18,915 nucleotides of DNA from Waddliaceae bacterium (GTDB lineage Bacteria; Chlamydiota; Chlamydiia; Chlamydiales; SLFE01), in contig CAWAPJ010000038.1 in assembly GCA_963783885.1 (NCBI GenBank), positions 1 to 18,915 on the forward strand, read 5' to 3'. The position numbers were made by a program, and so were the translations under genes. The notes under the pieces were generated by a model. That model saw only the letters and a program-made list of their open reading frames with translations. It did no database searches and was not told where the DNA came from. Below, piece by piece: positions 3 to 16,940 of the stretch (position 1 is its first letter; every line of letters starts with the position of its first letter).

Positions 3-3000
3 GAACGGCTTGAAAAAGGACTTGCAGATTCAGAGGAAGCTGGCAAAATTTTGGAAAAGACTCTTGCGTATGTTCGCTTTGAACTTGCCGATGCAGTAGC
101 TAGGATACCAATAAAAAAGCTTCCTCTTTTTAGCGAATGGATTCAAATATCAAAAGACCCCTCTGTTTTGGATTTTTGTGAGTTTTTGCTTGAAAAAAAG
201 GAAAATGAACTTGTTTGCACTCTTTTCCCTTGGGGTAATAAAAAAACGTTTGAGAATAAGTTGGCTGCGCAATTCAAAAATGAAACGAAAAGCCGAAAGT
301 CTTACCGTGCATGGTCATCTCAATTTAAGGATGAAATTCCTCTGTTTTGTAACAAACTCCTTTTTGAGCTTTTGGACATATCCGAAAGAATTCCGGGCAT
401 TTTTGAACCTATTATGGAAATTGCAGGAAAGCATTCTCCATTATTTTTGATCACTCTTATGAGGCACGTTAAAGAAAACGCCGATGGGAAACTTTTAAAG
501 CAAATCATCGGCTTCTCGGAAAAGGAGTTTGATTTTCCTCTGCACCTGAGTCTATGGAAAGAGTGTGGAGTTTCGGCTAAAATGTGTTTTGAGCTGATGG
601 GTTCTATAGGCGAAAAGAAATTCACTTATTTCATGAGAAATTCGTCCCTCCATGGACCTATTTTTAAACAGCTGAGCCAGGCATTGAAACAGAAAAATCA
701 TCGCCTTGATACAATTCTGGCTTTGCCCGATAAAGAATGCCTTGATCTGCTTGAGGTGTTATTTCCGATAATAGTACAACAGCCAAAATCTTTGTTTTTT
801 AGTTTATTTTCACCGCCATCAGGTATAGAAGAATCATTCAATGAAGAGCTAAACGACCCAGCGTTTAGAAAGTTAATCGCAGGAATAAAAGGGCCCATGA
901 GTCACCAGACCTATTCTGACATTATCAATCTCCTAAAATCGGATGCTTCATATTGCCGCAAGCTTCTCAATTTATGCGAATCATATCAAGGAGCATTTAC
1001 CCAGCTTTCAGGGGACCGCGAACTTTATCATTCATTAAAAAACGTCGAAACCCAATTTGGAATTTCGCACCCTGTAGTGGACCACCTGCTTTCTTTATTC
1101 AACAATGGAAAGGCTGATTTAGCAAAATACTATTTAAAAGTGGCAGAGGGCAAACAATGGAATTTTTTAGATAGGCTCATAGACATGAGCCGGGTCTCGG
1201 CTTCCGAAGATATGAAAGCCTTGTTTGAATATCTGGAAACGCATTCAAATGACAAACTCATGCGCCTTGTCTCATCGTCAAATGCTGGAGCGATCAAAGC
1301 TATTTTAAATCTTTCTGAAGTGACTGATAAGCTTCTTATAGAGCGAATCCAAAAAGGTAAAAACCTCAATCAACTTGATCGCAATCTTCTCCTTTTAAAT
1401 GCGCGCGGCTACAAAGACATGATTAATTGTATTTTGGAGGATTTTTCTAATCATCTAGACATTATGAGGCTGATTTCCGAAGGACATATTGAAACGGCAG
1501 TTTCAAAGTTTAAAGGATCGGTTCAAGAAATCCTTTATGATCATGAGACGCAAGTTGGCCAAAGTTCGGATAAACTGAAATTAGATTCTGCTTTTGCGCT
1601 TGCTGATTACATAATCGATAAAAAAGGAAAGCTTCATCTTGGAAGGATTGCCTCCCTTAAAAACCACCGGGATTATCATTCACTTCATATGGAGAAGGTA
1701 TTAAATCTTCTTGAGGTAAAAAAAGATATAGGGACACTACTAGTCCGGACGCCAATCCCCCAAAACGGAACTCCACAAGATGTTTTAGTCAAAAAAGCTT
1801 TAAATTTAAGGCCTGATTCCATTGTGACTCATCGCGATGTGCGTCTCCTTGTACTAAGCGCTTTGCTCTCCCATACCCGTCAAAGCGATGTCGGTTCATG
1901 TTTTGGAACATGCCTCACGATCCAGCAAGAATCCTCTGCAGTAGGGATCCTACAAATCCTAAACGATTTCCACGCGATCTTAGAGACTGGAGGTTTGACA
2001 AGGAATGGGCAGTTCTTTCCTATCAATATCAATGAGAACTATCTGGAAACGATCTTTCGCACGGGGCACCCGCTTTCTAGGCTGCGGGAGTATACTGTTG
2101 CGACAATGGGCGCTGATGAAGCGGCAAGCAAAACGTACATCAAAAGACCGATTGAAACAATCTGCAGCAAACTAAAAGATTTTTTTGGGCAATTTGACAA
2201 AAAAATGATTTCGAATTCTGAAATTGCCGACGACCTGACAACTGATTTTATTTCGAAATTGCCGTGCAAATATGTCTACGACGCTTCAAAGAGCAACCCG
2301 AACAAACCGGAAGAGGGCCGAGGAGCCTGGATACTGTTTGATAACCAAACCGAACACCCTGTTCAAAATATTGATGATTTCAGAGCTTTGATTCTCAAAG
2401 CCGTGCCGCCGTTCCAGCAATCATTGGCAAGGAAATTTCCCGAACACAAGAAGCAAATTATAGAATTCATAAATTCAGATATTATTCCTTTGATAAAAAG
2501 CGATCATTTTATCAGTTTAATTTGGGATTCTCTTTACTTCATGGTTTTGGAAGACTGCGGCGTTGTTTTTGATCGACTTGCCGAGGTCAATCCTATCCGC
2601 CATTACCAAAAATTAGACGATTCCCCCTGGTGTCTGTATCAAGGAGGTCTATCTGAAAGAGTCTTCAACACCTATTACGAAAGAAAAGAGATGAATGACT
2701 TTTCCGGAAGCCAGGCCTTTAGTCAGGATAATTTAGTGGACTCCCTCATTAGCTTCATCCAAAATTTGCCGGAAAGTATCAAACATTGTTGCAATGAGAA
2801 TCCTGGACGGCTTATTTATTTGGGAATGCCTGGCCACGCACTGTCTCTCAAGCCGCATAAGCTTCTAAAACACTTATCTCAATATGAAAATAGAGAGTCT
2901 CTTCTTAAGAGTTTGAAAGAGCAAACTGAAAGTTGGTTAAAAGTTACGATTACCCTTCAAGATCACCAGAATATTTTTGATGGCTTGGTGAAAGAAGCCA

Positions 3001-3398
3001 ACGAAGAACAAAAACATGAGCTCAAAGAAATTCAGCAAAATATTATGACTGAGTCCTGCTCGCTCTCAGAATACATCGATATCTGTCGAAATGAATTGCA
3101 AGCGCATGTTTTTTCTAAATCGCATTTGCAACATAATTTATCAACTTTAGCCTCGGAAATTGCCAGTCTTCCTCGAATGAGAAAACTGAGGCCAAAGGTC
3201 ATTGAAATAGCCGATACAAATTGGGAGTCGCCTCGAAGCCATCTGGCCATAACCGGCAATCCCGTAACAGGTAAAGCAATGATTGTTCTGACTGATGACA
3301 AGCATCACCAGTTTAAAGCATTTAATGAAGCCGCATTAGTAGGAAAATGGCAGCTGCCGAGAGAAATTATTTTCCCTGATGAATTTTCAATTCATTGA
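3..3398 (+). CDS. Large hypothetical protein (5'-truncated by window edge), putative papain-fold Cys-His-Asp enzyme / secreted effector
   Basis: The frame is open from position 3 (ERLEKGLADSEEAGKI then LEKT...), so the TTG at 51 is probably not the true start. The N-terminal half is Leu-rich and helical. The C-terminal half has RQSDVGSCF (Gln 1881, Cys 1899), YQGG, PGHAL (His 2835) and IADTNW (Asp 3213). Stop TGA at 3396-3398. Confidence 0.85.
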   Translation, partial: ERLEKGLADSEEAGKILEKTLAYVRFELADAVARIPIKKLPLFSEWIQISKDPSVLDFCEFLLEKKENELVCTLFPWGNKKTFENKLAAQFKNETKSRKSYRAWSSQFKDEIPLFCNKLLFELLDISERIPGIFEPIMEIAGKHSPLFLITLMRHVKENADGKLLKQIIGFSEKEFDFPLHLSLWKECGVSAKMCFELMGSIGEKKFTYFMRNSSLHGPIFKQLSQALKQKNHRLDTILALPDKECLDLLEVLFPIIVQQPKSLFFSLFSPPSGIEESFNEELNDPAFRKLIAGIKGPMSHQTYSDIINLLKSDASYCRKLLNLCESYQGAFTQLSGDRELYHSLKNVETQFGISHPVVDHLLSLFNNGKADLAKYYLKVAEGKQWNFLDRLIDMSRVSASEDMKALFEYLETHSNDKLMRLVSSSNAGAIKAILNLSEVTDKLLIERIQKGKNLNQLDRNLLLLNARGYKDMINCILEDFSNHLDIMRLISEGHIETAVSKFKGSVQEILYDHETQVGQSSDKLKLDSAFALADYIIDKKGKLHLGRIASLKNHRDYHSLHMEKVLNLLEVKKDIGTLLVRTPIPQNGTPQDVLVKKALNLRPDSIVTHRDVRLLVLSALLSHTRQSDVGSCFGTCLTIQQESSAVGILQILNDFHAILETGGLTRNGQFFPININENYLETIFRTGHPLSRLREYTVATMGADEAASKTYIKRPIETICSKLKDFFGQFDKKMISNSEIADDLTTDFISKLPCKYVYDASKSNPNKPEEGRGAWILFDNQTEHPVQNIDDFRALILKAVPPFQQSLARKFPEHKKQIIEFINSDIIPLIKSDHFISLIWDSLYFMVLEDCGVVFDRLAEVNPIRHYQKLDDSPWCLYQGGLSERVFNTYYERKEMNDFSGSQAFSQDNLVDSLISFIQNLPESIKHCCNENPGRLIYLGMPGHALSLKPHKLLKHLSQYENRESLLKSLKEQTESWLKVTITLQDHQNIFDGLVKEANEEQKHELKEIQQNIMTESCSLSEYIDICRNELQAHVFSKSHLQHNLSTLASEIASLPRMRKLRPKVIEIADTNWESPRSHLAITGNPVTGKAMIVLTDDKHHQFKAFNEAALVGKWQLPREIIFPDEFSIH

Positions 3399-3700: not shown

Positions 3701-4468
3701 TTAGAACAAGCCTGAGCAAAGGGCGGTGCCGAAAGCAAACAGAAGCACAGAAACAACAGACCTTAAGAAGTTTAAGGTAATTTTCTTGAGGAAAAAAATG
3801 CCAGTCAGGATGCCGAGGAGGCCCGAGAGTATCACGACAGTTAATAAACTTGGGGTGACTAGCGAAAAAAGATGATAGAAGCTGATTCCGTAAACGATCA
3901 GCCTGGCGGCATCGACTAAAATGGCGATGCAGGCCCCTGTGGCAATATAGCGGTCTTTGCTGAGATTCAAGTTGATGAGAAAGCCGCTTCTCAAGGCTCC
4001 CTGAAATCCCGAAATCCCTCCGAAAAAGCCGCTGGAAAGTCCTCCCAAGGGGAGCCATTTGGGGTTTATAGACGTAAAGTCGTAGAGGCTCTGGATTCTC
4101 AGGACTCCTAAGAGGATGAGGAGTAGGCCGATAAGAATCTTGATGTATTCGATGGAAAATCTATGGCCGAAAAGGACGTATGTAGCTATGGGTTGCAAGT
4201 GAAGCATCTTGACAAGAAGCCATGACCCGAGAAGCGATCCGGCGATGGCGGGAAGTCCGAAGTAAAGAACCGTTTTCAGGTCGATCGATTTGAAAAGAAG
4301 ACCGCTTTTGATCAGATTATTCAGAAAGTGAAGGAAGGCCGTCAGGGCAATGGCCACGGGTAGCGGGGCCGCTATGATGAGGATGGGGAGCATGAGGGTG
4401 CCGAATCCGAAACCTGTAAAAAAAGTCAGAAGGGAGACGATATAGATTACGACGGCTGCAGAGATCAT
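3701..4468 (-). CDS. Sulfite exporter TauE/SafE (TSUP) family membrane protein
   Basis: About 255 aa and very hydrophobic, with two internal Gly-rich halves (TGFGFGTLMLP; SSGFFGGISGFQGALRSGFL) typical of the TSUP family. The ATG at 4468 overlaps the upstream stop (ATGA). Alternative start at 4477. Confidence 0.85.
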   Translation of the reverse strand: MISAAVVIYIVSLLTFFTGFGFGTLMLPILIIAAPLPVAIALTAFLHFLNNLIKSGLLFKSIDLKTVLYFGLPAIAGSLLGSWLLVKMLHLQPIATYVLFGHRFSIEYIKILIGLLLILLGVLRIQSLYDFTSINPKWLPLGGLSSGFFGGISGFQGALRSGFLINLNLSKDRYIATGACIAILVDAARLIVYGISFYHLFSLVTPSLLTVVILSGLLGILTGIFFLKKITLNFLRSVVSVLLFAFGTALCSGLF

Positions 4469-6324
4469 GTAAGACATACATTTTTCTGGTGGCTGCGATA
4501 GAATAAAACTTTATTTTCGCCGACAAAGATCGGCTTAGCTTCGGAGGAATTTGACAAAGTGCCAATTTCCATGCTCTCATCCTGAGAATGTGCCTGGATT
4601 TTTTTGGTTTCCTCATCCATTGTCCAGATAAGATTGTGTTTTTTGTCGATATAATAGCTAATATTGGAAGAATCTAAATCGAGTTCTCTTGTTTCTTTTT
4701 TGTCAAAGTTGACAAGCATGATTTTCTGAGAGGTTTCCGATTGAAATATGAGTGTGCTTATGCCAATTCCTCCGATGAATCGGAGAGCCCCTAGAGGATA
4801 TTCCATTTTTTCTGTTGGCCGAAAGATCTTGCCATTTTTTACTAAACGCTTTGAAATAATTGTCGATTCTTTGCTTTGCATTAAAGTGAATAAATTTTGT
4901 TGATGAAAAAGAAAATCCGGGCAATCGGGCAATAGGGTTTTTTTTCCTTTTTGGGAGAACAAAGTGCTTATTCTCAAGCGGCTATTGCGAAAACCCGCCA
5001 ACTCTTCGGAGCAGATCAATTCTCCCGCAGGTCTCTTTTCGATGAATTTTGTTTTCCGGAAATTCTCCGAAAACTCCACTCCGTAAAGCTTATCGCCAAA
5101 TGCTAGAAAACAATATCCCGAGGAAGTAATCGACATTTGGTCTCCGTGGGCAGGCTGCTGCGGCAGGCTGGTTTTAAAGGATATTGTTCCATCTTCCGGA
5201 TTGACAAAATTCAGTACGTTGGAATTTTTATAGATAAAAGCAATCCCTAAAGGCGTTTGCTGGATATGAAAAAGTGCATCTTCCAAAGGGATGCCCCAAA
5301 TAAGCCTTCTCGTTGTATTGTGAAAGCTCATAAGCCATGTTGCAGGGTTGTTAGGAACGCGATAAAGGGAAGCCAGGCGGAACTTGGAAGGGAAAATCGG
5401 CCCCTGAAAACCTTCATTTAAACGAAAGGTTTTTTTGGGATGCAAATAAAAATGATCCTTATCAATCAGATCGGGGCCGGGCCATCCGAATAGCTGAGGA
5501 AAGTCGCTTCGGGCAATATGAGGGAGCGTTTTTCTGATTTCATCAAGCTGAGAGGCTGCTTCGAAGAGGCTGTCGGCTGAATTAATTTTATCCATTAGCT
5601 CGCCGACAAGAGCGGTTTTTTTATCGCAGTCGGAATTTTTCAGTTCCTTGATTAAACGAATACGTTCCCGGGGAGAGGACTGCTTAAGGAGACTGGCGAG
5701 CGATCTTCCTTTATTTTTCCACTTGTTGAAAGGAATCGAGGTTAAGGCCTTCTGGATATATTTAAAGGTTGATTCATTCTGAATAAAACTGTAGAGCAAA
5801 GGAGAGTTGCTGTCTTTGCTTTTCAAGAGAATAAAATCTATAAATTTCGTATTATTGGGGCATTGTTTCATATCAAATTCATTGAGGCATGATCGAATAT
5901 GGGTTCGCCTCAATTGAGCAAAGGTGCAATTTTCTTGAAGGGGGAGAGGTTTCTTAAGGCGTAAGATCAATTTAATCAATGCGAGAAAACAATAGCCTGA
6001 AACAGAATTATTGGTATTATTGCTGAAGAAATAGAAGCTCTCCAAAGTTTTTCTTAAGGTTTCAATTGTCATCCTATTTGTTAGAATTTGCAATTGCTGC
6101 CAAATGGGATTGCCGGGTTTCAAAGTTCCTTCTCTACAATGGTCCTTGAGATGACTTTCAAGAAACTCATTTTTATTATTAAGATTGTTTAGCGATTTTG
6201 GCCTCGGTGAATGCTTTTTCAAGGCTGTTTGGCCAATGCGAGCAATGGAACTATCGCCGGGTTTATTTTCCCGTCGATAGCTCGGTGGAGGAAAAAAACT
6301 GTTTATAACTGAGTTTGAATCCAT
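4465..6324 (-). CDS. Hypothetical protein, 619 aa (effector-like; helical middle, beta-rich C-terminal half)
   Basis: Long uninterrupted ORF with AGAGGA upstream of the ATG. Ser/Pro/Asn-rich N-terminus without a Sec signal or TM segments. The C-terminal ~330 aa consist of short alternating hydrophobic strands. No family recognised. Confidence 0.8.
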   Translation of the reverse strand: MDSNSVINSFFPPPSYRRENKPGDSSIARIGQTALKKHSPRPKSLNNLNNKNEFLESHLKDHCREGTLKPGNPIWQQLQILTNRMTIETLRKTLESFYFFSNNTNNSVSGYCFLALIKLILRLKKPLPLQENCTFAQLRRTHIRSCLNEFDMKQCPNNTKFIDFILLKSKDSNSPLLYSFIQNESTFKYIQKALTSIPFNKWKNKGRSLASLLKQSSPRERIRLIKELKNSDCDKKTALVGELMDKINSADSLFEAASQLDEIRKTLPHIARSDFPQLFGWPGPDLIDKDHFYLHPKKTFRLNEGFQGPIFPSKFRLASLYRVPNNPATWLMSFHNTTRRLIWGIPLEDALFHIQQTPLGIAFIYKNSNVLNFVNPEDGTISFKTSLPQQPAHGDQMSITSSGYCFLAFGDKLYGVEFSENFRKTKFIEKRPAGELICSEELAGFRNSRLRISTLFSQKGKKTLLPDCPDFLFHQQNLFTLMQSKESTIISKRLVKNGKIFRPTEKMEYPLGALRFIGGIGISTLIFQSETSQKIMLVNFDKKETRELDLDSSNISYYIDKKHNLIWTMDEETKKIQAHSQDESMEIGTLSNSSEAKPIFVGENKVLFYRSHQKNVCLT

Positions 6325-6445: not shown

Positions 6446-6772
6446 ATGCAGAAAATAGATTATCAAGTAACGCACAATTGTGCAAAACCCCATTGTCAAG
6501 TGGATTTTGACGAATCCAACGATCAAGTTTCTACAATTTGTATTGAGCATAACCATCCGCAATTGTCTTACATTTCAGGAAAACATCTTGATAAAAAAGA
6601 ATTGGAACAAATTCTGGAAAACTTGGAAAAGTGTATGTATACACTCGAACTTTCGCAAATCTTAATGGAACACAATAATCGCAACATCGTTGCCAAAGCC
6701 TTAGAAAAGCAGCATTATCACGACCTGGCTGTCTCAAAAATCATTGCCAAAAAACTGATCTCCTCACAATGA
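6446..6772 (+). CDS. Small hypothetical protein, 108 aa, His/Cys-rich N-terminus
   Basis: Strong RBS. The ORF fills the gap between the divergent 619-aa gene and the convergent antiporter (9-bp 3' overlap). No family recognised. Confidence 0.75.
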   Translation: MQKIDYQVTHNCAKPHCQVDFDESNDQVSTICIEHNHPQLSYISGKHLDKKELEQILENLEKCMYTLELSQILMEHNNRNIVAKALEKQHYHDLAVSKIIAKKLISSQ

Positions 6773-8542
6773 TTTTTTCGCCATGAAGATTACCTTTCCT
6801 CCAGCTGCGGGGGGAGAGGTTTTATCCGTTGTCAAAGGAACAAGAATGCCCCCTTTTCGAATGTAGAAGAGAGGGATCGCCTGGTGTTGATATTGGTTTT
6901 CCCAATCCTTGTGGGTAAACTCAGCTGTAATTCGGGTGGATTTGATGTCATAGCCTTCCTCTAAGAAGCGGGAAAGACGGTGGAAATCGTATCCTTCACC
7001 AAAAAGACGCCTTCCCATAAGGCGGGCGGGGATTTTATCTGTTGTTTCGGGAAGCTGGTAGAGGCCCGCCTGATCAAAATGTTCGCTAAAGTGAATAACA
7101 GCAAGACTGTTGACATCGTCGCTTTCGGTCATGGCCAACAGTTTTCCCATATCCTCAAGTCCATCGGGATTTTCCGATTCGAAAGTCAGAAAATTTCCGT
7201 GATAAACGGGGAGACGGTAATCTTTTGTTTCCGATACCTTCCAAAAATCGGTATCGATGAACTGCACTTTGTACTTTTCCGCGTCAAGTGCCTCGCCTAT
7301 ATGCCTTGCCAGTGTGTTGGCCCCGATAATGAGGATGCCTTGGTCGGGCAGGCTCGACAAATTGAGCCATTTGGCTATCAGCGGCGCGGCGATTCCATAA
7401 AAGATAACGGTTCCAGCGATGACCGTGAAGGTTATTGGGGCGATGATATGGGCGCCCTGATATCCGATTTTAGACAGCTCCAATCCGAAAAGGGCGGATA
7501 TCGCAGCGGCTATGATACCCCGCGGAGCGAGCGAAGATAAAAAGAAAATTTCTTTCCAGCTCAGCTCCGAGAACATTGTGGAAGCCAAAACACTTACAGG
7601 GCGGGCGATAAAAATTAGAAAGGCCAAAAGGAGCAAGCTGACCCCGAGGGTTTCTTTTAAGGCCTGCAGTTCGATGCTGGCAGCTAATATAATAAACAAA
7701 AACGCGATCAAAATAATCCGGAGGTTTTCTTTAAAATCGACGATATGGCTGATTTGGGTTTCTTTTTGATTGGCCAGGATCATCCCCATAATTGTCATGC
7801 AGATCAATCCCGAATCCTGTTGAAAAAGATTAGACAGGATGAAAGTGACAAACAGGATCATCAGGATGACAGGGTTGTGCAATTCGTCGCTCATCCAGTA
7901 TTTTCTGAGTAGCAGCAAAATAAAATAGGCTCCGGCAATTCCGATGACAGTTCCTATGACAAGTGTTTTGACAACTCCTATGGAGATAACGCCGAGCGCT
8001 TCGGTGACGCTTCGTTGAAGGAGGCCTTGATAGATAAGCACCGCAACCATCACTCCAAGCGGGTCGATGATAATCCCTTCCCACCTCAAAACCGAGCGAA
8101 TCGGTTCTTTGACGTTCAAATCGGAAAGCATCGGGATGATCACTGTCGGTCCTGTGACAATCAGGATGGCGCTCTCGAGAAGAGAGATTGTCAGGCTGAA
8201 CCCAAGCACGTAATGAAGGAACAGGAAGGTCAGACCCATCCCGACGATCGCCCCGATTGTAACAAGATTCCGGATGACATGGCCGACTTCCCTGACATCT
8301 TTAAATCTCAGGCTTAGGCCCCCTTCGAACAAAATGACTGCGACAGACAGCGAAACAATCGGAAGCAGCAAAGGACCGAAAAGCTGCTTGGGATCAATCC
8401 ACCCCAGTATCGGACCCGCTAAAAAACCGACAGTCAGCAATAACAGAATCGACGGGGCTTTAATGGCCCAGCTTAGCCATTTAACCGAAATGCCAAGCGC
8501 GATAATCGCGGCGAGACTGATGACAGCCGTTTGCGTTTCCAT
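6764..8542 (-). CDS. CPA1-family (NhaP-like) sodium:proton antiporter with C-terminal RCK/TrkA-N-like domain
   Basis: About 12-13 TM segments with motifs AVILFEGGLSL, VTGPTVIIP, LRWEGIIIDPLG, FIARP and APRGIIAAA. The C-terminal Rossmann-like region contains GILIIGAN...FIDTD...LLAMTESDDVNSL. Confidence 0.92.
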   Translation of the reverse strand: METQTAVISLAAIIALGISVKWLSWAIKAPSILLLLTVGFLAGPILGWIDPKQLFGPLLLPIVSLSVAVILFEGGLSLRFKDVREVGHVIRNLVTIGAIVGMGLTFLFLHYVLGFSLTISLLESAILIVTGPTVIIPMLSDLNVKEPIRSVLRWEGIIIDPLGVMVAVLIYQGLLQRSVTEALGVISIGVVKTLVIGTVIGIAGAYFILLLLRKYWMSDELHNPVILMILFVTFILSNLFQQDSGLICMTIMGMILANQKETQISHIVDFKENLRIILIAFLFIILAASIELQALKETLGVSLLLLAFLIFIARPVSVLASTMFSELSWKEIFFLSSLAPRGIIAAAISALFGLELSKIGYQGAHIIAPITFTVIAGTVIFYGIAAPLIAKWLNLSSLPDQGILIIGANTLARHIGEALDAEKYKVQFIDTDFWKVSETKDYRLPVYHGNFLTFESENPDGLEDMGKLLAMTESDDVNSLAVIHFSEHFDQAGLYQLPETTDKIPARLMGRRLFGEGYDFHRLSRFLEEGYDIKSTRITAEFTHKDWENQYQHQAIPLFYIRKGGILVPLTTDKTSPPAAGGKVIFMAKKSL

Positions 8543-8581: not shown

Positions 8582-9016
8582 TTACCCCGCGCATACAACT
8601 TGGGAAACCATGCCGGCAGCCTTGCTGATCATACCTTCGGTGATTTGAAATCTTTTATAGGGTATCGGCACAAAGCTTTGTATATCTTTGAGCGGCAAAA
8701 CCTTTAGATTCTCTTCACCAGCGAATTTGCCCACAAGAACCAGTTCTCCGATTTCATTTTTCCCAACCAGCACAGGCTCAAATAGCTGCTTTGTCAATAT
8801 GACTTTGCTTTTTTCGACTTTTTTCGTGAGGATTTCTAAAGTTGATTGATTTGTAATTGCCCGGCAGATAGGCTGCCCCGGGTCCGTCGGTAAAATCAGT
8901 TCGTGGGGTTGTCCTTCGAAGGCTTTGACATTCAATGGGCCAAGCTGCACATCGACACAAAAAGCAGCCAACGGGATAAGGACTAATATCGCTGAAAATG
9001 GGATTATTTTACTCAT
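8582..9016 (-). CDS. Putative exported protein, WYL-like domain pattern (tandem paralog 2)
   Basis: N-terminal signal peptide MSKIIPFSAILVLIPLAAFC and a perfect RBS. The C-terminal 95 aa are 34/95 identical (no gaps) to the 9028-9441 product. Confidence 0.8.
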   Translation of the reverse strand: MSKIIPFSAILVLIPLAAFCVDVQLGPLNVKAFEGQPHELILPTDPGQPICRAITNQSTLEILTKKVEKSKVILTKQLFEPVLVGKNEIGELVLVGKFAGEENLKVLPLKDIQSFVPIPYKRFQITEGMISKAAGMVSQVVCAG

Positions 9017-9028
9017 AATTCACCTCCT
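9017..9028 (-). promoter_or_regulatory. RBS AGGAGGTGAATT (copy 2), overlapping upstream stop codon
   Basis: Identical 12-mer to 9443-9454. Reads TAAGGAGGTGAATT-ATG, with the TAA being the stop of paralog 1. Confidence 0.8.
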
Positions 9029-9441
9029 TAAGGCCCGCAAATGACTTCGGAGACCATTCCGGCAGCTTGGTCTTTCATTTGCTGAGTGACAACAAAGTTT
9101 TTCGTTTCCAGTACAGCTGCGTTGCGGATAAATCTGATAGGAATTTGGACGAGTTCTTTTTGGCCCTCATATTTTCCTATCAGAATCAAAGCTCCCGAGG
9201 GATCGCGGCCAAGCAAGATGGGGTCGAAACGCTTTTGTTCGAATTTAAGAACATTATTCTCAGCGACTTGGCGGCTGATTTCAATGGTAAACTGATTGTT
9301 GATCGCATAGCATAAATGTTCAGGCGACACTTCTCTTACTCGTGTCGCAGGCGACTGAGGTTGAAATGGCTGAGCATTTAAACTAAATAAACTTAGCTGC
9401 GCGCAAACAAATAAAATAGAGAAGGAAATTAATTTATTCAT
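9028..9441 (-). CDS. Putative exported protein, WYL-like domain pattern (tandem paralog 1)
   Basis: Signal peptide MNKLISFSILFVCAQLSLFSLNA and a perfect RBS. Core sequence LCYAINNQFTIEI...RFDPILLG...GALILIG...IPIRFI...F...GMVSEVIC. Confidence 0.8.
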   Translation of the reverse strand: MNKLISFSILFVCAQLSLFSLNAQPFQPQSPATRVREVSPEHLCYAINNQFTIEISRQVAENNVLKFEQKRFDPILLGRDPSGALILIGKYEGQKELVQIPIRFIRNAAVLETKNFVVTQQMKDQAAGMVSEVICGP

Positions 9442-9442
9442 A

Positions 9443-9454
9443 AATTCACCTCCT
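9443..9454 (-). promoter_or_regulatory. RBS AGGAGGTGAATT (copy 1)
   Basis: AGGAGGTGAATTT-ATG directly before the 9441 start. Confidence 0.8.
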
Positions 9455-9483: not shown

Positions 9484-10653
9484 TTAATATTTAATTGCGG
9501 TTAAATTATTTATAGTTTGTTGAATATCAGTGACTAAGTCATCGAGATTCTCTATGCCGACAGAAAAGCGGACAAGCCCATCGCCAATTCCCATTTTTTT
9601 CCTCTCTTCAGCCGGGATTGACGCGTGGGTCATCAAGGCAGGATGATTGACAAGAGATTCCACCCCGCCTAGGCTTTCGGCTAAAGTAAAAAGCTTAAAG
9701 GAGGATATCAGCTGGTTTGTTTCTTCAAGAGAGAGATCAAATTCGACAGAGACAATTCCGCCGAACCCACTCATCTGCTTTTTCGCGATATCATGGGCTG
9801 GATGAGTGGACAGTCCGGGATAATAGGTTTTTTTGACGAGGGGATGACGATCGAAAAATTCCGCTATTGCAAGAGCGTTTTGATGATGGCGCTCCATTCT
9901 CAAGGCCAGAGTTTTGACGCCCCTGAGAGTCAGCCAGCAGTCAAAAGGACTGGGATTGACGCCAGCAGCCATGCGGGCAAAGTCGAGTTTTTGTTTGATT
10001 TCGGGATCGTTTGTCACTACCGCCCCGCCAATGACATCGGAGTGGCCTCCAATGTATTTTGTTGTGCTGTGCAAGACAATATCGGCCCCGTATTCAAGAG
10101 GGTTTTGAAAGCAGGGAGTAGCAAACGTATTGTCGACAATAGCTGTAATGGCGTAGGATTTTGCGGCCTTAAGTATGAGCTCTAAATCCAAAATTTCCAG
10201 AAGGGGGTTCGTGGGCGATTCCATAAGAAGCCATGCGGGCTTTTTTTCAAGTTCCTTGTTTAACGATTCCAAAGAAGTGAAATGATGGGAGCTAAATTCA
10301 ATACCGAATCGGTTAAACACCCGTGTGAGCAGGCGGTAAGTGCCTCCGTAAACGCTGTTTAGCAAAAGAACCCGGTCCCCTGACTTCAGCAGTCCTAAAA
10401 TCATGGCGGTCAGTCCGCCGAGTCCTGAGGAAAAGACTGTGGCGAATTTTCCTTTTTCCAAAGAAGCGAGAGTTGTTTCCTCCATGACAAAGTTGGGATT
10501 ATTGGCTCGTGTATACTCATAGCCGCTATGAACTCCCGGAGACGTTTGAGCGAAAGTCGAGGTCATATAAATCGGGGGCATGACAGCTCCCGTCTTTACG
10601 TCGGGTTGAAACCCTTCATGAATGGCTTTTGTGGCAAATGAAATCTCGTCCAT
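9484..10653 (-). CDS. Cystathionine gamma-lyase/gamma-synthase family PLP enzyme (MccB/MetB-like)
   Basis: Motifs FATKAIH, GAVMPPIYMTSTF, YEYTRANNP, FSSG, YGGTYR, ESPTNP, VDNTFATP, PLP-lysine motif HSTTKYIGGHSD, LAESLGGVESL and RFSVGIE. Start ATG 10653 (MDEISF) is preferred over the 10677 call. Confidence 0.95.
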   Translation of the reverse strand: MDEISFATKAIHEGFQPDVKTGAVMPPIYMTSTFAQTSPGVHSGYEYTRANNPNFVMEETTLASLEKGKFATVFSSGLGGLTAMILGLLKSGDRVLLLNSVYGGTYRLLTRVFNRFGIEFSSHHFTSLESLNKELEKKPAWLLMESPTNPLLEILDLELILKAAKSYAITAIVDNTFATPCFQNPLEYGADIVLHSTTKYIGGHSDVIGGAVVTNDPEIKQKLDFARMAAGVNPSPFDCWLTLRGVKTLALRMERHHQNALAIAEFFDRHPLVKKTYYPGLSTHPAHDIAKKQMSGFGGIVSVEFDLSLEETNQLISSFKLFTLAESLGGVESLVNHPALMTHASIPAEERKKMGIGDGLVRFSVGIENLDDLVTDIQQTINNLTAIKY

Positions 10654-10702
10654 AATCACCGTTTTGTTTAAATCCAATTTTGACTATAACAAAATCTTAT
10701 AT
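10654..10702. promoter_or_regulatory. 49-bp divergent promoter region with overlapping -10-like hexamers
   Basis: Plus-strand TATAAC (10685-10690) and minus-strand TGtTATAGT (10691-10683) overlap. A 7-bp inverted repeat TTTTGTT/AACAAAA lies at 10662-10668/10688-10694. Confidence 0.4.
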
Positions 10703-11548
10703 ATGAAAAAGAAGATTTTTATTACGGCCGGTATTATTCTGCTCGCTCTTGCAGCGGTTGGCCTTTATTATTTTTTAGAAAGTGAGGAGGAGGGTCAAAC
10801 TCTCGTTCTCTATGGAAATGTCGACGTGCGTCAGGTGGATTTGGGATTCCGAGTTAACGGAAGGGTTGCCGCGATGTTGTTTGAAGAAGGGGATCTTGTC
10901 GAACCAGGGCAGCTGATGGGGGCTCTGGATCCTGAGCCTTATCAGGAGGAGGTCTCTCAAGCGAAAGCCAGAGTCGGGGCGTCAATGGCGGCTCTTCAAA
11001 ATGCCGAATGGGTGCTCAAAAGACGGGAAGAGGTTGTGGGAACCGGAGCGGTGTCGAAGGAAAATTACGACGAGGCGCTTTACACGGCAGAGAGGCTGCG
11101 GGAGGATCTCAAAGAAGCAGTGGCAGCTCTTGAAAGAGCGGAAACCAATCTTCACGATACCGAAGTATTCGCTCCGACGCTTGGAACCATCCTAACGAGA
11201 GTCAGAGAGCCTGGAGCCGTCGTCAACTTCGGAGAGCCGATTTATACTCTGTCCATCACATCGCCGGTTTGGGTGAGAGCTTATGTTACAGAGCCCGAGC
11301 TTGGAAATATCTTCCCCGGGATGGAGGCGGAGGTGTTTACCGATTCGCCAAACCTTCCCGTTTACAAAGGACATATCGGATTTATCTCGCCCGTTGCCGA
11401 GTTTACGCCCAAAACCGTGCAAACCACAACGCTTAGGACCGACCTTGTCTACCGCATCCGCGTCGTTGTCGACAATCCCGACGAGCTGTTAAAACAGGGA
11501 ATGCCCGTCACAGTCAAGATCAATTTAAAGCAGGAGCAAAGTTCTTGA
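10703..11548 (+). CDS. ybhG: HlyD-family periplasmic adaptor (YbhG-like)
   Basis: MKKKIF plus a single TM anchor, then LYGNVDVRQVDLGFRVNGR, a coiled-coil hairpin and GFISPVAEFTPKTVQTTTLRTDLVYR. Start at 10703 avoids overlap with the divergent gene. Confidence 0.92.
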   Translation: MKKKIFITAGIILLALAAVGLYYFLESEEEGQTLVLYGNVDVRQVDLGFRVNGRVAAMLFEEGDLVEPGQLMGALDPEPYQEEVSQAKARVGASMAALQNAEWVLKRREEVVGTGAVSKENYDEALYTAERLREDLKEAVAALERAETNLHDTEVFAPTLGTILTRVREPGAVVNFGEPIYTLSITSPVWVRAYVTEPELGNIFPGMEAEVFTDSPNLPVYKGHIGFISPVAEFTPKTVQTTTLRTDLVYRIRVVVDNPDELLKQGMPVTVKINLKQEQSS

Positions 11549-13269
11549 GCGATGCTATCGTATCTCTGCAGAATCTGGCCAAACAGTTCCCGCGTCAAAA
11601 AACAATGGCCCTTGCGCCAATCACTACCGACATCCCTTCGGGAAAAATCGTCGGCCTTATAGGGCCTGACGGGGCGGGGAAGACGACATTGATCCGTCTT
11701 GTCATTGGTCTTCTCACCCCTACCGAGGGGACTGTCATCGCAATGGGCCATGACGTGTTTGAGGAAACGAATAAAGTCCATCAATTGTTGAGTTACATGC
11801 CCCAGCAATTCGGCCTTTATGACGATCTTACCGTGAAGCAGAATCTCGAGCTGTACGCCCGTCTAAGGGGGTTGCGGAAAAATGAGCAAAAAGACATTTT
11901 CGACAAACTCCTTGATTTTTCAAAACTTGCCCCTTTTCAAGATCGTCTGGCGAGGAATTTATCCGGAGGGATGAAGCAAAAGCTGGGATTGATTTCCGCT
12001 TTGCTGCAGAAGCCTCGCCTTCTTATTCTCGATGAACCCACAGTAGGTGTCGACCCTTTTGCCAGAAGAGAGCTTTGGGATATGATGCGCTCTCTTGTCA
12101 AGGACGGGATTTCAGTACTCTGGAGCACATCCTATCTAGACGAGGCTGAAAAATGCGATGAGGTTTTGCTGTTGAATGCGGGCAGCTTGTTGTTTCAGGG
12201 GCTTCCTGCGACTTTGACCGGGAAAATGGCTGGCAGGGGGTTTCTCATTAAGGGAATTTCCGGCCCCAAAAGGAATGTCTTGTCGCGCTGCCTTCTGAAT
12301 CCTGCGGTTCTTGACAGCGTCGTTGAGGGAAGAGCGGTAAGATTAGTTGTGAAGGAAGGAGAAAAGCGGCCTCCTCTTGAAGACCTTGAAGCGGGGGAGG
12401 GAGCCGTTTATGAGGAGGCAACCCCAAGGTTCGAAGATGCATTCATTGATATACTAGGCGGCGGGCCGAAAGAGGTGTCGCCTCTCACTAAAAGGATGAC
12501 TCACTTTCCCGAAGATAACGAAATCATTATTAAAGCCGACGGTTTGACAAAACGGTTCGGGAAGTTCACGGCGACCGCCGGGGTCAGCTTTTCCGTGCCG
12601 AGGGGGGAAATCTTCGGTCTTCTCGGACCGAACGGCGCGGGAAAATCCACGACATTCCGCATGCTTTGCGGCCTTATCAAGCCGACAGAAGGCGCTGCCT
12701 ATGTCGAAGGGGTCTCTCTGCAGGACGCTCCCAGCAAGGCGCGGTCGAAGATAGGCTATGTCGCGCAAAAATTTTCTCTCTACGGCAATATGACCGTCAG
12801 CCAGAATCTCAATTTTTTTTCCGGCATCTATCCTGTCAAAGAGGAAAACCGCAAAGAAGCCATAGGAGACATGGTTTCTATTTTTTCTTTTGAGCCTTAT
12901 TTGAATACTCCTGCCGGGCAGCTCCCTTTGGGATATAAACAGCGTCTTGCCCTTGCCTGTTCGCTGATGCACCGCCCCGAAGTTCTTTTTCTTGACGAGG
13001 CCACTTCCGGAGTGGACCCGGTGACCAGAAGGGAATTTTGGAATCACATTAACGGTCTCGTCGATAAGGGGACGACCGTGATGATCACCACCCACTATAT
13101 GGACGAGGCCGAATATTGCGATAGGATCGGATTCTTATCCCAAGGCAAACTGGTTGCCATAGGATCGCCGGACGAGCTTAAAGAAAGCGTTCAATCGGAC
13201 GAGCTCTTAAATCCGAGCATCGAGGATGCATTCATTATCTTGTGCGGAGGGGAAGGGAATGCAAAGTAG
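11545..13269 (+). CDS. ybhF: ABC transporter ATP-binding protein with two NBDs (YbhF-like)
   Basis: Walker A motifs GPDGAGKTT and GPNGAGKST, signatures LSGGMKQK and LPLGYKQR, Walker B LILDE and LFLDE. The TTG start overlaps the ybhG stop (TTGA). Confidence 0.95.
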   Translation: MSDAIVSLQNLAKQFPRQKTMALAPITTDIPSGKIVGLIGPDGAGKTTLIRLVIGLLTPTEGTVIAMGHDVFEETNKVHQLLSYMPQQFGLYDDLTVKQNLELYARLRGLRKNEQKDIFDKLLDFSKLAPFQDRLARNLSGGMKQKLGLISALLQKPRLLILDEPTVGVDPFARRELWDMMRSLVKDGISVLWSTSYLDEAEKCDEVLLLNAGSLLFQGLPATLTGKMAGRGFLIKGISGPKRNVLSRCLLNPAVLDSVVEGRAVRLVVKEGEKRPPLEDLEAGEGAVYEEATPRFEDAFIDILGGGPKEVSPLTKRMTHFPEDNEIIIKADGLTKRFGKFTATAGVSFSVPRGEIFGLLGPNGAGKSTTFRMLCGLIKPTEGAAYVEGVSLQDAPSKARSKIGYVAQKFSLYGNMTVSQNLNFFSGIYPVKEENRKEAIGDMVSIFSFEPYLNTPAGQLPLGYKQRLALACSLMHRPEVLFLDEATSGVDPVTRREFWNHINGLVDKGTTVMITTHYMDEAEYCDRIGFLSQGKLVAIGSPDELKESVQSDELLNPSIEDAFIILCGGEGNAK

Positions 13270-14389
13270 TTTAAAGGTTTTGAGAACCTGGGCGCTCATC
13301 AAAAAAGAGTTTTTTCAAATTGTGCGCGATCCAAGCAGCGCTCTTATCGCTATTATCTTGCCTCTTATCCTTTTGTTTATCTATGGCATTGGCATATCTC
13401 TTGATATTACGAATCTTGAAATCGGTATTGCTATGGAAGATTCCTCTCCTTTAGTGCAAAGTTTTGTCGACTCTATCAAGGATTCGAAATATTTTTCGGT
13501 CAAGGTCGAAAGATCCTCCGAACCGTTTTATCGAATGATGGAGGAGGGGGCCATTCGTGGATTTGTCGTCATTCCCTCTTATTTTTCCCGCGATTTTTTA
13601 AATCCTGAAACCCAGGCGCCCATACAGGTCATTGCCGACGGCTCTATTCCGAATACGGCCAGTTTCGTCCAAAATTATGTGAGGCAGGCCTGGCTAAACT
13701 GGGTGCGCCTATTAGATATTAACAAAGCAACTACAAGAAGGCCTAAGATCACAGTTGAATCCAGATTCTGGTATAATGAAGATCTCAACAGCCATTATTT
13801 TCTCGTTCCCGGGTCCATTGCGATAATCATGACTCTAATCGGTACCCTTTTAACGGCGGTTGTTGTGGCGCGGGAGTGGGAAAGGGGAACGATGGAGTCA
13901 TTGCTCTCTACGCCGGTGACAATCAGCGAGCTGATCATCAGCAAAATTGTGCCCAATTTCTGCCTCGGTATGACATCGCTATTTTTTTGCACGTTGATCG
14001 CCGTATTCCTGTACAATGTGCCTTTCAGAGGCAGCGTTTGGGTGCTTGCCCTTGTGTCTGCAGTGTTTCTGATGACAGCCCTTGGAATCGGACTCTTCAT
14101 TTCCACTCTTGCGCGCGATCAGTTTGTCGCCTCTCAAATGTCGATTGTCGTCTCCTATTTGCCGGCATTTATGCTTTCGGGGTTTATTTTCGAAATCTCC
14201 AGCATGCCGATTGTGATTCAATTGATCACTTATATTGTTCCCGCTAAATACTATGTAACATCTTTGCAGACCGTATTCCTTGTGGGAAATGTTTGGAAGC
14301 TGCTCCTCTATGATACTGGTGCGCTTTTGATTTTTTGCTTCATTATCTTTATTCTGACAATTAAAATTTCCAGAAAAAGGCTTGATTGA
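13259..14389 (+). CDS. ybhS: ABC-2 type permease (YbhS-like)
   Basis: Motifs ALIKKEFFQIVRDPSS, IQVIADGS.PNTA, VAREWERGTMESLLSTP and LSGFIFEISSMP. ATG 13259 is preceded by GGAGG. Confidence 0.93.
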   Translation: MQSSLKVLRTWALIKKEFFQIVRDPSSALIAIILPLILLFIYGIGISLDITNLEIGIAMEDSSPLVQSFVDSIKDSKYFSVKVERSSEPFYRMMEEGAIRGFVVIPSYFSRDFLNPETQAPIQVIADGSIPNTASFVQNYVRQAWLNWVRLLDINKATTRRPKITVESRFWYNEDLNSHYFLVPGSIAIIMTLIGTLLTAVVVAREWERGTMESLLSTPVTISELIISKIVPNFCLGMTSLFFCTLIAVFLYNVPFRGSVWVLALVSAVFLMTALGIGLFISTLARDQFVASQMSIVVSYLPAFMLSGFIFEISSMPIVIQLITYIVPAKYYVTSLQTVFLVGNVWKLLLYDTGALLIFCFIIFILTIKISRKRLD

Positions 14390-14391
14390 CA

Positions 14392-15501
14392 ATGATTAAG
14401 CGGCTCAAAGCTCTCATTATCAAGGAGTTTCTCGCGATACTTCAGGACAAAAAAAGCCGAACAGTCCTGATCATTCCGCCTTTGGTGCAGCTGTTTATTT
14501 TTTCGTTTGCCGCCACCCTCGATGTTGAGAATGTCAATATGGGCGTATGGAATAAAGACAATGGCAAGTATTCCTATGAACTTATTCAAAGATTTGTCGG
14601 ATCGCCCACTTTTAAGAACATTTATTTTTATCATAACGAAAAACAGGTAGAAAGGGCCATCGATAATGAAGAGGCTCTCATTGTTGTTCATATAGACGAG
14701 AACTTTTCCCGAGATATTTTGTCGGGAAAAGTTGCCAAGGTTCAGTTTTTGCTCGACGGGAGAAAATCCAATTCCGCGCAGATTGTCGGAGGGTATGCCG
14801 TCAGCATTTTAGAGCAGTTCCAGAAAGATACAAAGGCGGCAATCGGGCTGCCGAAAGCGAGGACAGCATTGATTCCTTGGAATTGGTACAATCCCAATTT
14901 GCTCTACACCTGGTTTACTGTTCCCGGCTTGGTTGGCATTCTGACTATGCTCATCTGCCTTTTGGTCACTGCCATGTCTGTGGCCCGGGAAAGAGAGGTG
15001 GGAACATTCGAGCAGCTTCTTGTTTCGCCCCTCCTTCCTTCGGAAATACTTCTGGGCAAGGCCATTCCCGCGATGGTTATCGGAATTGCTGAAGGGTCTT
15101 TGATATTATTTGCCGCCATTTTTTTCTTCGGCATTCCCTTTACCGGCTCTCTTTTTCTTTTATATTTCAGCATTATTATTTTCGTCTCTTCGATTGTCGG
15201 AATCGGTCTTTTCATTTCTTCTCTTTCAAAAACCCAGCAGCAAGGTCTTTTGGGCGTGATGATTTTTATGGCGCCGGCTGTTGCTCTTTCCGGTTTCGCG
15301 ACTCCGATCGAGAATATGCCCGAGTGGCTGCAGGTGGGCACGCTTGCCAATCCTCTGAGATATTTTCTCGTCATCGTTCGGGGCATCTTTCTCAAGAACC
15401 TTTCCTTCTCTATTGTCTGGAATCAGACCTATCCCATGGCCATTATCGCATTTTTTACCTTGACTGGGGCCGACTGGTTCTTTAGAAAAAAACTAGAATG
15501 A
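14392..15501 (+). CDS. ybhR: ABC-2 type permease (YbhR-like)
   Basis: Motifs LIIKEFLAILQD, LLDGRKSNSAQI, SVAREREVGTFEQLLVSP and LSGFATPIENMPEWLQ. Alternative TTG start at 14386. Confidence 0.93.
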   Translation: MIKRLKALIIKEFLAILQDKKSRTVLIIPPLVQLFIFSFAATLDVENVNMGVWNKDNGKYSYELIQRFVGSPTFKNIYFYHNEKQVERAIDNEEALIVVHIDENFSRDILSGKVAKVQFLLDGRKSNSAQIVGGYAVSILEQFQKDTKAAIGLPKARTALIPWNWYNPNLLYTWFTVPGLVGILTMLICLLVTAMSVAREREVGTFEQLLVSPLLPSEILLGKAIPAMVIGIAEGSLILFAAIFFFGIPFTGSLFLLYFSIIIFVSSIVGIGLFISSLSKTQQQGLLGVMIFMAPAVALSGFATPIENMPEWLQVGTLANPLRYFLVIVRGIFLKNLSFSIVWNQTYPMAIIAFFTLTGADWFFRKKLE

Positions 15502-16940
15502 AGATTGCATTATACTTAGGGATTGTTTTAGCGCTTGCCTCCTGCCGTGTCGGCCCCGATTACAGGCGGCCCGATTGCGACATGCCAGTCGCCTGGACAG
15601 TTTCCGATGAAGCCAAAACAGAAGAGAGTCCCGACGAGTGTTGGTGGGAGTCTTTTGATGATGAGCAACTTGTGCGCTACATTCGGCTTGCCTCGCATTA
15701 TAATAAGGACATTCAAACTGCTCTTGCAAACATTTCTGAGGCCAGGGCCCTAAGGGCTCAGGCAGCTTCCAGGCTTTATCCCGATATCGACGCCGAGCTT
15801 AGATACAACCGCAACTCCTTCAACACATTTTTCGGAGGCGCCGGAGATGTCAATCCCGGAAACATCCAATCGTTTACGACCAACTTCCAGCAGGAAATCT
15901 TTTTCGTTGGACTCGATGCCATCTGGGAAATCGATATCTTCGGGAGGACAAGAAGACAGGTCGAAGCGGCCTGTTATCGGATCGGAAGCTCGATTGAATA
16001 CTATTATGGCGCCCTCATTTCTGTTTTTGCCGAAACAGCGTGGAACTATCTGGATGCTAGAGGCCTTCAGGAAAAGATCTTCGTCAAGGAGCGTGAAATT
16101 GAAGTCATGTGCGAAGCGCTGCAATTAACAGGCGATAAATACCTTGCAGGACTTATCAGCGACATCGAGCTGAAAAACAGAGAGGCCGAGCTCAGCCGTC
16201 TCGAATCGGAGCTGCCCCACTTGTATACCGAGCTTTATGCCGCAATCTACCGTTTATCGGTGTTGACAGGCCATTTCCCCGGGGGGCTTCTTGAGGAAAT
16301 GCAGGAGTCGAAACCGCTGCCGGAATTGCCCCGGGTTGTCAATACCGGACTTCCTTCCGAACTTCTGCAGCGCCGTCCCGATATAAGACAGGCTGAAACC
16401 GAGCTTGCCGCTGCTACTGCCGACATCGGTGTCGCCGTAGGCGACCTTTTTCCCCGTTTTTTTCTTGCCGCCAGTATCGGCGATCAGAAGTTTTCTCTCC
16501 CAACCCAAACATTGGACGGCTTTGTTTGGTCATACACAGCCGATATCCTGACCCCCATATTTCACGGAGGAAGAATCCAGGCCAGCATCCGCGAGAAAAA
16601 GGCAAAAGCCGAGCAGGCCTTCTACACCTACGAAAATACCATTCTGCAGGCTGTTGAGGAGACAGAGGACCGCCTTTTGGGCTACACGCAGGAGCTCGAC
16701 AGGATCCGGTCATTGTCTCAGGCCCTTAAGGACAACACGGAATCGTGGGAGTTGACCCGGCTGCTCTATGACAAGGGGATAACAGACGCCATAACGGCAT
16801 TGGAAAAAGAAAGAGAGACCCTTCAGTCAAGGGAGTCTGTCATAGACAGCAGGATTCAGGCTTTTGAGCAGCTAGTCGGACTCTACAAAGCCTTGGGCGG
16901 GGGCTGGGAGTGCGAGGAAGGCGGACTCTGCGTTCAGTAG
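15498..16940 (+). CDS. Efflux outer-membrane lipoprotein (NodT/OprM/TolC family)
   Basis: Lipobox LASC followed by RVGPDY, plus WWESFDD, WEIDIFG, GLPSELLQRRPDIRQAE and C-terminal LYKALGGGW. ATGA overlap with ybhR. Confidence 0.94.
   Translation: MKIALYLGIVLALASCRVGPDYRRPDCDMPVAWTVSDEAKTEESPDECWWESFDDEQLVRYIRLASHYNKDIQTALANISEARALRAQAASRLYPDIDAELRYNRNSFNTFFGGAGDVNPGNIQSFTTNFQQEIFFVGLDAIWEIDIFGRTRRQVEAACYRIGSSIEYYYGALISVFAETAWNYLDARGLQEKIFVKEREIEVMCEALQLTGDKYLAGLISDIELKNREAELSRLESELPHLYTELYAAIYRLSVLTGHFPGGLLEEMQESKPLPELPRVVNTGLPSELLQRRPDIRQAETELAAATADIGVAVGDLFPRFFLAASIGDQKFSLPTQTLDGFVWSYTADILTPIFHGGRIQASIREKKAKAEQAFYTYENTILQAVEETEDRLLGYTQELDRIRSLSQALKDNTESWELTRLLYDKGITDAITALEKERETLQSRESVIDSRIQAFEQLVGLYKALGGGWECEEGGLCVQ

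Follow-up and report, generated by a model that had tools for sequence, protein, structure and literature searches.

A tandem pair of putative exported proteins with a predicted WYL-like barrel and a conserved cysteine pair in a Waddliaceae bacterium

Two small genes, here called A and B, lie side by side on the minus strand of an 18,915-nucleotide stretch of DNA from a Waddliaceae bacterium (contig CAWAPJ010000038.1 of assembly GCA_963783885.1; this whole stretch is referred to below as the window). Gene A (9028..9441, minus strand) is an open reading frame of 137 codons plus stop, whose product comprises a predicted signal peptide, a Pro/Gln-rich linker and one WYL-like barrel domain. Gene B (8582..9016, minus strand) has 144 codons plus stop and encodes a predicted signal peptide, an LGPL strand motif, a Pro-rich linker and, again, one WYL-like barrel domain. 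Each gene is preceded by an AGGAGG Shine-Dalgarno sequence, read directly from the DNA and spaced 6-7 nucleotides from the ATG in both cases. That of A lies at 9449..9454 (minus strand), and the stretch under study is bounded at 9454 because the motif reaches there; that of B lies at 9023..9028 (minus strand) and overlaps the stop codon of A. At an intergenic distance of 11 nucleotides, A and B are probably co-transcribed and translationally coupled.

The two genes are paralogues. BLASTP aligns their products at 33% identity (48/144, E 9e-27) with gaps confined to the N-terminal third, and the C-terminal 95 residues are identical at 34 positions without any gap, exactly the figure on which a preliminary description of this DNA had based its claim of paralogy; when the B tail was shuffled 20,000 times, the count never exceeded 19. 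The motifs quoted in that description are likewise present, with PICRAI...QVVCAG in B and HLCYAI...EVICGP in A, and the spacing motifs AITNQSTLEI, FEPVLVG, GELVLVG and LPLKDI are all found in B. Orthologues in both remaining genomes of the genus, together with low ratios of nonsynonymous to synonymous substitution (dN/dS), show that A and B are real genes: identities are 83% and 52% for A, and 86% and 48% for B, in genomes G001 and G002 respectively. When the genome of the window (G000) is compared with G001, A has a dN/dS of 0.13 and B one of 0.18, and the Na+/H+ exchanger gene that follows B has 0.055; A and B are thus fast-evolving yet under purifying selection. Of 41 related genomes searched, three, all of one genus, have adjacent A and B orthologues in this order, followed by the exchanger gene, and the pair was not found outside that genus. 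The three resulting genome pairs, together with P0004 and P0007 from a search of 1.84 billion proteins, make up the eight sequences that we call short forms. A scan of metagenome contigs with one of our alignments (A1) gave 553 pattern matches and no relatives.

Both proteins begin with the features of a cleavable Sec signal peptide, as judged by a simple heuristic check of the n-, h- and c-regions (hydropathy and the residues at -3/-1) that yields predictions only. For A the predicted signal peptide covers residues 1-23 (MNK...SLNA/QPF; 9373..9441, minus strand; hydropathy 2.13), a region with a predicted local distance difference test score (pLDDT) below 50 in the AlphaFold2 (AF2) model, and for B it covers residues 1-20 (MSK...LAAFC/VDV; 8957..9016, minus strand; hydropathy 3.01). 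All four A-type orthologues have LNA, LHA or LEA before the cleavage site (LNA/Q, LHA/R or LEA/I across the short forms), and all four B-type orthologues have AFC/V or LFS/L at the corresponding place. An M-x-K start, with Lys at position 2-3, recurs in 8/8 short forms, as do small residues at -3/-1 and a hydropathy maximum, taken over 12 residues, of 2.0-3.0; by the same heuristic these sequences thus show the basic n-region, the h-region of 10-16 residues and the small -3/-1 residues expected of Sec-exported proteins with a cleavable signal peptide. Longer single-copy relatives, the long forms considered below, agree: a hydrophobic N-terminal segment is present in 11/11 complete sequences (hydropathy 1.85-2.70), a count that leaves out L042, truncated where its contig stops, and L049, which lacks an ATG. 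The relative from Estrella lausannensis was named 'Putative secreted protein' by its source, and we count this in favor of export. The preliminary description, which proposed exported proteins with Sec-type N-termini, had pointed to homologues beginning at the domain itself as the observation that would tell against it; no such homologue was seen among the relatives examined, and predicted export is supported across short and long forms alike. We considered a lipoprotein and rejected it: a signal-region Cys occurs in only two of four A-types and two of four B-types, Gly, Ala or Ser never precedes it at -1, and there is no conserved lipobox L-[AS]-[GA]-C.

A second shared feature is a pair of cysteines that brackets the domain, as the preliminary description had noted. 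In A these are Cys44 in the first helix (codon 9310..9312, minus strand) and Cys135 in the last strand (codon 9037..9039, minus strand), each invariant in 18/18 aligned family sequences; their counterparts in B, Cys51 (8864..8866, minus strand) and Cys142 (8591..8593, minus strand), are invariant in the family alignment as well. All eight short forms have exactly two Cys and no Trp in the mature part, with isoelectric points of 4.3-9.6, and each of the 13 long forms likewise has two Cys per domain, no more and no fewer, when the hydrophobic N-terminal segment is set aside. This count of two per domain, including the 2+2 Cys of a 346-residue two-domain long form, favors pairing within the domain. 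The genome of the window also yields matches to DsbB (32 bits, cut-off 22.1) and to a DsbA-like Thioredoxin_4 protein (35.4 bits, cut-off 23.2), which makes disulfide formation in the periplasm plausible.

The fold was predicted with AF2. The folded domain of A (residues 36-137; 9031..9336, minus strand) is modelled as a helix (40-48), five strands (51-61, 64-79, 85-91, 98-101 and 105-115), a second helix (120-127) and a short strand (132-135), and the domain of B (residues 45-144; 8585..8884, minus strand) has the same topology, such that the order helix, five strands, helix, short strand is common to both. From an alignment of eight sequences, A gave five consistent models (pLDDT 79.7-81.8, domain blocks 92-98); from six sequences, the best model of B reached a pLDDT of 75, with the domain at about 90 or higher. 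When each model was compared with the PDB, represented by a single chain per 40%-identity cluster (48,161 chains), ranks 1-9 were occupied by WYL proteins only, for A and B alike, and these chains scored 1-3 Z units above generic barrels while covering some 30 more residues, including both helices. Foldseek likewise placed the PafBC chain 6sj9_B first for both models (E 2.6e-3 for B and 2.0e-3 for A). A feature search of the ESM Atlas with A returned at the top two 135-residue clusters named 'putative WYL domain-containing protein' (scores 0.86 and 0.85), which have 172 and 163 of 256 features in common with A. The absence of a WYL- or Sm-like structural match, to which the preliminary description had tied the fate of its fold proposal, was thus not what we found.

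Both predicted models possess the elements by which a WYL structure is known, namely an Sm-type barrel whose strands are long and bent, a long helix at the N-terminus and another helix at the C-terminus. PMC9186387 gives the DriD WYL domain the same element order, and PMC6789036 characterises WYL domains as Sm folds in which the helix and the strands are extended, a description that the A and B models fit.

Several results weigh against a WYL assignment, and they come from structure prediction as well as from sequence. The remaining four of the five B models were poor (pLDDT 44-51), and the A and B models are not independent, because the folding alignments are shallow (eight and six sequences) and overlap. 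Foldseek gave no match at E<=1e-3 for either model, with ribosomal protein bL19 among the matches; an ESM Atlas score below 0.9 is only a lead by the calibration of the tool; and an ESM Atlas look-up of one long form gave no usable match. Neither A nor B matches any Pfam or NCBIfam family at E<=10. A six-frame search of the window's genome with PF13280 found no match among six candidates, while seven of 14 control genomes do match. Six hhalign comparisons of the family with WYL profiles gave E-values of 0.21-0.47 (0.32 and 0.41 among them) and probabilities of at most 0.3, against shallow profiles (seven and 15 small chlamydial WYLs, and 120 closely related CapW-like proteins) from which a deep HHpred search could differ. 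Two further searches were also negative: Foldseek against viral structures (BFVD) gave no match at E<=1e-3, the fifteenth-ranked entry (E 0.026) being a phage 'WYL domain containing protein', and when the family profile was run against PDB sequences the top match was a DegP-type protease that is not significant (E 0.36). The WYL-fold claim of the preliminary description thus stands where predicted structures are compared and is not supported where sequences are, no sequence method having linked the family to WYL. We file A and B as WYL-like by fold, outside PF13280, and treat homology to WYL as possible.

The longest hhalign alignment, 74 columns and itself non-significant, reproduces the WYL register that had been proposed for these proteins: AI-helix, conserved Pro, hydrophobic strand and x-L-x-x-I. 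In this non-significant register, RWHVR of CapW lies opposite ALILI of A and the third pocket arginine lies opposite Val, with the result that none of the three CapW pocket arginines is kept in A. A W-Y-L motif is not recognizable either, given that all eight short members lack Trp and that no Tyr occupies the motif position in the best, non-significant register. The available portions of PMC9186387 and PMC11662680 list the residues of the single-stranded DNA (ssDNA) pocket as Y168, R176, R178, Y192, R204 and R207 in DriD and S158, R180, R184 and R200 in CapW; by the RWHVR/ALILI register, the clamping residues described in those portions are apparently lost. A and B thus appear to lack the clamping Arg, Tyr and Ser residues, and the reported absence of the basic R-x-F-x-x-x-R-I ligand motif is borne out within the limits of a non-significant alignment.

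How far A and B depart from described WYL proteins is best seen against DriD (7tzv, 8tp8), PafBC (6sj9, 9fnd), BrxR (7t8k, 7qfz) and CapW (7tb6, 9c5g), all of them regulators built of a winged helix-turn-helix (wHTH), a WYL and a WCX domain. A and B show no significant sequence or profile similarity to these, lack both the helix-turn-helix (HTH) and the WCX, and stand alone with no output domain; whereas the four references are cytoplasmic, A and B carry a predicted signal peptide and the conserved Cys pair. Moreover, the positions that contact ssDNA in the DriD and CapW pockets, as far as the consulted accounts give them, are hydrophobic or neutral in A by the non-significant register. More than 90% of WYL proteins contain an HTH, according to the accessible part of PMC6789036. 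Pfam finds no other domain in A or B, and with their signal-peptide-like N-termini they do not belong to the cytoplasmic type, which is usually fused to HTH and WCX domains.

Hfq and other bacterial Sm-like proteins offer a second comparison. Hfq spans only the core; in the A and B models the strands are longer and one more helix and strand follow at the C-terminus, as they do in WYL domains according to the PafBC paper (PMC6789036). Assembly into an Hfq-like ring that binds RNA outside the cytoplasm is unlikely. A third comparison is with the small stand-alone canonical chlamydial WYLs (about 70-100 residues, PF13280-positive), which like A and B occur in the same bacterial order, stand alone and consist of the barrel only. 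Unlike A and B, they score above the Pfam cut-off, keep W-H-x-x-x-Q-W-L-L and R-x-F-x-L-K-D-I, and have neither a conserved signal peptide nor the Cys pair. Such small proteins (L010, L011, L012, L014, L016 and L018-L032) were seen in 15 of 301 genomes of the order; PF13280 and small-WYL queries found none in the genome of the window or in its family (0 of 5 genomes).

One canonical WYL reading frame (L013:1483-1833:-, in G013:C70, the same place as L017; PF13280 24.3 bits, cut-off 21.8) has a hydrophobic, signal-like segment in frame upstream (MKFFSFLCLFCFCQAMVFS). As the founder of an exported canonical WYL family it was rejected: homologues in 14 other genomes match the WYL part only and do not share the hydrophobic N-terminus, which may be a start-site artefact or belong to a one-off exported canonical WYL. 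A full wHTH-WYL-WCX regulator (L009, in G018:C100) was also found in a chlamydial metagenome-assembled genome (MAG), about 70% identical to proteins whose sources assign them to Pseudomonas aeruginosa and to further Pseudomonadota; since the listed contamination of that genome is 5%, the contig may not be chlamydial.

Taken together, these observations probably describe a pair of co-transcribed, Sec-exported Sm-like barrels of the WYL variant, bearing a Cys pair, belonging to a chlamydial family and acting as binding or adaptor proteins. On this account both proteins would be exported by the Sec pathway and lose a signal peptide of some 20-23 residues to signal peptidase I, leaving a short disordered Pro/Gln-rich linker followed by one domain of about 100 residues. 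That domain would be an Sm-like beta-barrel with N-terminal and C-terminal helices, the WYL variant known from DriD, PafBC, BrxR and CapW. Its Cys pair would most likely be oxidised in the periplasm, tying the first helix to the last strand and stapling the domain shut. Because the ssDNA-clamp residues appear not to be kept, and because some orthologues have an acidic and others a basic net charge, a nucleic acid is an improbable ligand. We propose a binding or adaptor role because no effector domain is attached; the proteins would most likely act through protein or small-ligand contacts as soluble modules, periplasmic or secreted further. That A and B sense a ligand is speculation.

The strongest competing explanation, to which we give perhaps a minority chance, is that the domain is a generic small Sm/SH3-type beta-barrel of independent origin whose likeness to WYL is convergence devoid of functional meaning. 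Against it stand the structural ranks 1-9, exclusively WYL for two different sequences, above generic barrels and covering both helices, and the language-model look-up of A in the ESM Atlas, which arrives at WYL independently. A further explanation, that the models are wrong owing to shallow alignments and that an unclassified exported chlamydial protein with some other fold lies at this locus, is improbable: the alignments are indeed small and most B models poor, but the five A models agree (pLDDT about 80, domain above 92), A and B yield one element order at 33% identity, and the hydrophobic pattern fits alternating strands.

The family extends beyond the genus. A hidden Markov model of the eight short forms, run against 400 scored genomes of the order (one further genome was not scored), matched 16 genomes, 13 of them outside the genus, and the long-form matches lie in open frames of 155-376 residues (E 1e-7 to 9e-3 per genome). 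These long-form relatives are single-copy genes of 185-350 residues. A joint profile brought E-values down to 5.5e-74 and matched 19 of 400 genomes sampled from the phylum, with matches concentrated by family (7/46, 3/6, 2/5 and 2/5 genomes) and none in the 29, 90 and 69 genomes of three other families, the 29 being small genomes of about 1.1 Mb. The long forms have in common a predicted signal peptide, a G-P-F-S-L-Q-F motif, a P-I-C-x-A-I start, an E-P-Y strand and a V-I-C-Q-L-P end, together with an insertion of about 55 residues relative to the short forms; the G-P-F-S-L-Q-F motif is reduced to L-G-P-L-N-V in B and lost in A. Seven positions are invariant in the 18-sequence alignment, both Cys among them, and its conserved hydrophobic pattern is the one that fits alternating strands.

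Related loci stem from Waddliaceae, Parachlamydiaceae, Parachlamydiales and 'Chlamydiae' MAGs. The homologue of A and B from Estrella lausannensis (CRX37924.1 / WP_098037788.1, 'Putative secreted protein', 186 residues) has in common with them the signal peptide, P-I-C-x-A-I, E-P-[YV] and V-I-C-Q-L-P; in contrast to A and B, it and the homologues from Parachlamydiales MAGs are single-copy and carry the insertion of about 55 residues and the N-terminal G-P-F-S-L-Q-F. Other family members are unnamed or 'hypothetical', and long forms match nothing in Pfam or NCBIfam. The statement that no such system had been described was thus nearly right: relatives do exist in databases, but are labelled only hypothetical or 'putative secreted'. 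Judging by search listings, we found no description of an exported WYL or Sm-like domain in the literature searched, a body that excludes most subscription journals. On the strength of the profile matches, A and B appear to represent a new, unannotated family of exported proteins confined to Chlamydiota and present in 19 of 400 genomes.

Two long forms depart from the common plan: L045:883-1920:+ is the 346-residue protein with two tandem domains and 2+2 Cys, and L050:913-1959:+, of 349 residues, has a low-complexity region of about 190 residues (Gln, Gly, Tyr, Ser) between signal peptide and domain. Four vWA-plus-repeat proteins (P0006, P0008, P0009 and P0010) that phmmer had returned at E 4e-7 to 3e-4 were rejected as spurious, the family profiles giving no match. 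A B-only profile scores them at no more than 9.7 bits in total and 1.9 bits per stretch, in the Pro-rich linker only, and their phmmer E-values arise because a repeated L-L-M-P-T-E-P-G matches that linker of B several times.

A maximum-likelihood tree of 21 rows, which includes L045 as two rows, one per domain half, and omits L049, separates short from long forms with 100/100 support and unites the A-types as a clade (100/100), the B-types branching around them without resolution. The A/B pair is a tandem duplication, seen in one Waddliaceae genus, of a shortened family member. Since B keeps the ancestral N-terminal motif, and given the tree topology, it is simplest to suppose that a long form lost its insertion before the duplication, with A the more derived copy; as the tree is unrooted, we only infer this order of events. 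The suggestion that A and B form a heterodimer in the manner of PafB/PafC is weakened, because the duplication is seen in one genus and the family is otherwise single-copy.

It is tempting to see here the first extracytoplasmic branch of the WYL superfamily. In this tentative scenario, which we regard as possible rather than probable, chlamydiae captured an ancestral ssDNA-sensing WYL barrel, which acquired both a signal peptide and a disulfide staple and lost the pocket for nucleic acids. It would now be a binding module, either periplasmic or directed at the host, and in one Waddliaceae genus it would have been shortened and then duplicated to give an A/B heterodimer. According to PMC9186387, PMC6789036 and PMC11662680, WYL domains sense nucleic acids in the cytoplasm and act as switches of transcription factors and defence systems. 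If A and B are indeed exported, disulfide-stapled and devoid of DNA-binding residues, the WYL fold would be a general ligand-binding scaffold, and WYL research would gain a natural minimal domain with neither HTH nor WCX. Only environmental chlamydiae with 1.8-4 Mb genomes have the family, whose members are candidates for functions in the envelope or in host interaction. The finding is best taken as a WYL-like Sm barrel in exported, stand-alone, Cys-pair-bearing form.

Downstream of B by 39 nucleotides begins the gene for the Na+/H+ exchanger, which has a TrkA_N domain (6764..8542, minus strand; Pfam). That A and B are periplasmic accessory subunits of this exchanger, the three genes forming one functional operon, is improbable: the A-B-exchanger order is kept on one strand in 3/3 genomes with the pair, and no terminator-like site was found between B and the exchanger, but those three genomes all belong to one genus, in a second genus of that family (G003) the orthologous exchanger, at 58% identity, has an unrelated 400-residue gene upstream and no A or B, and no neighbour cluster recurs in more than two of 14 long-form loci (a 15th, a weak Pseudoxanthomonas match at E 6e-4, was left out). 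The exchanger is thus context only, and probably has no functional link to A and B.

On the other side, a gene for a pyridoxal phosphate (PLP) enzyme of Cys/Met metabolism ends 42 nucleotides upstream of A. Elsewhere in the window, two open reading frames have no Pfam family above threshold: one of 1131 residues (3..3398, plus strand), open at the contig start and with a sub-threshold ApoLp-III match only, and one of 619 residues (4465..6324, minus strand). Divergent from the PLP enzyme gene runs a five-gene efflux set (10622..16940, plus strand) encoding an HlyD-type membrane-fusion protein, a double ABC ATPase, two ABC-2 permeases and a TolC-like outer-membrane factor.
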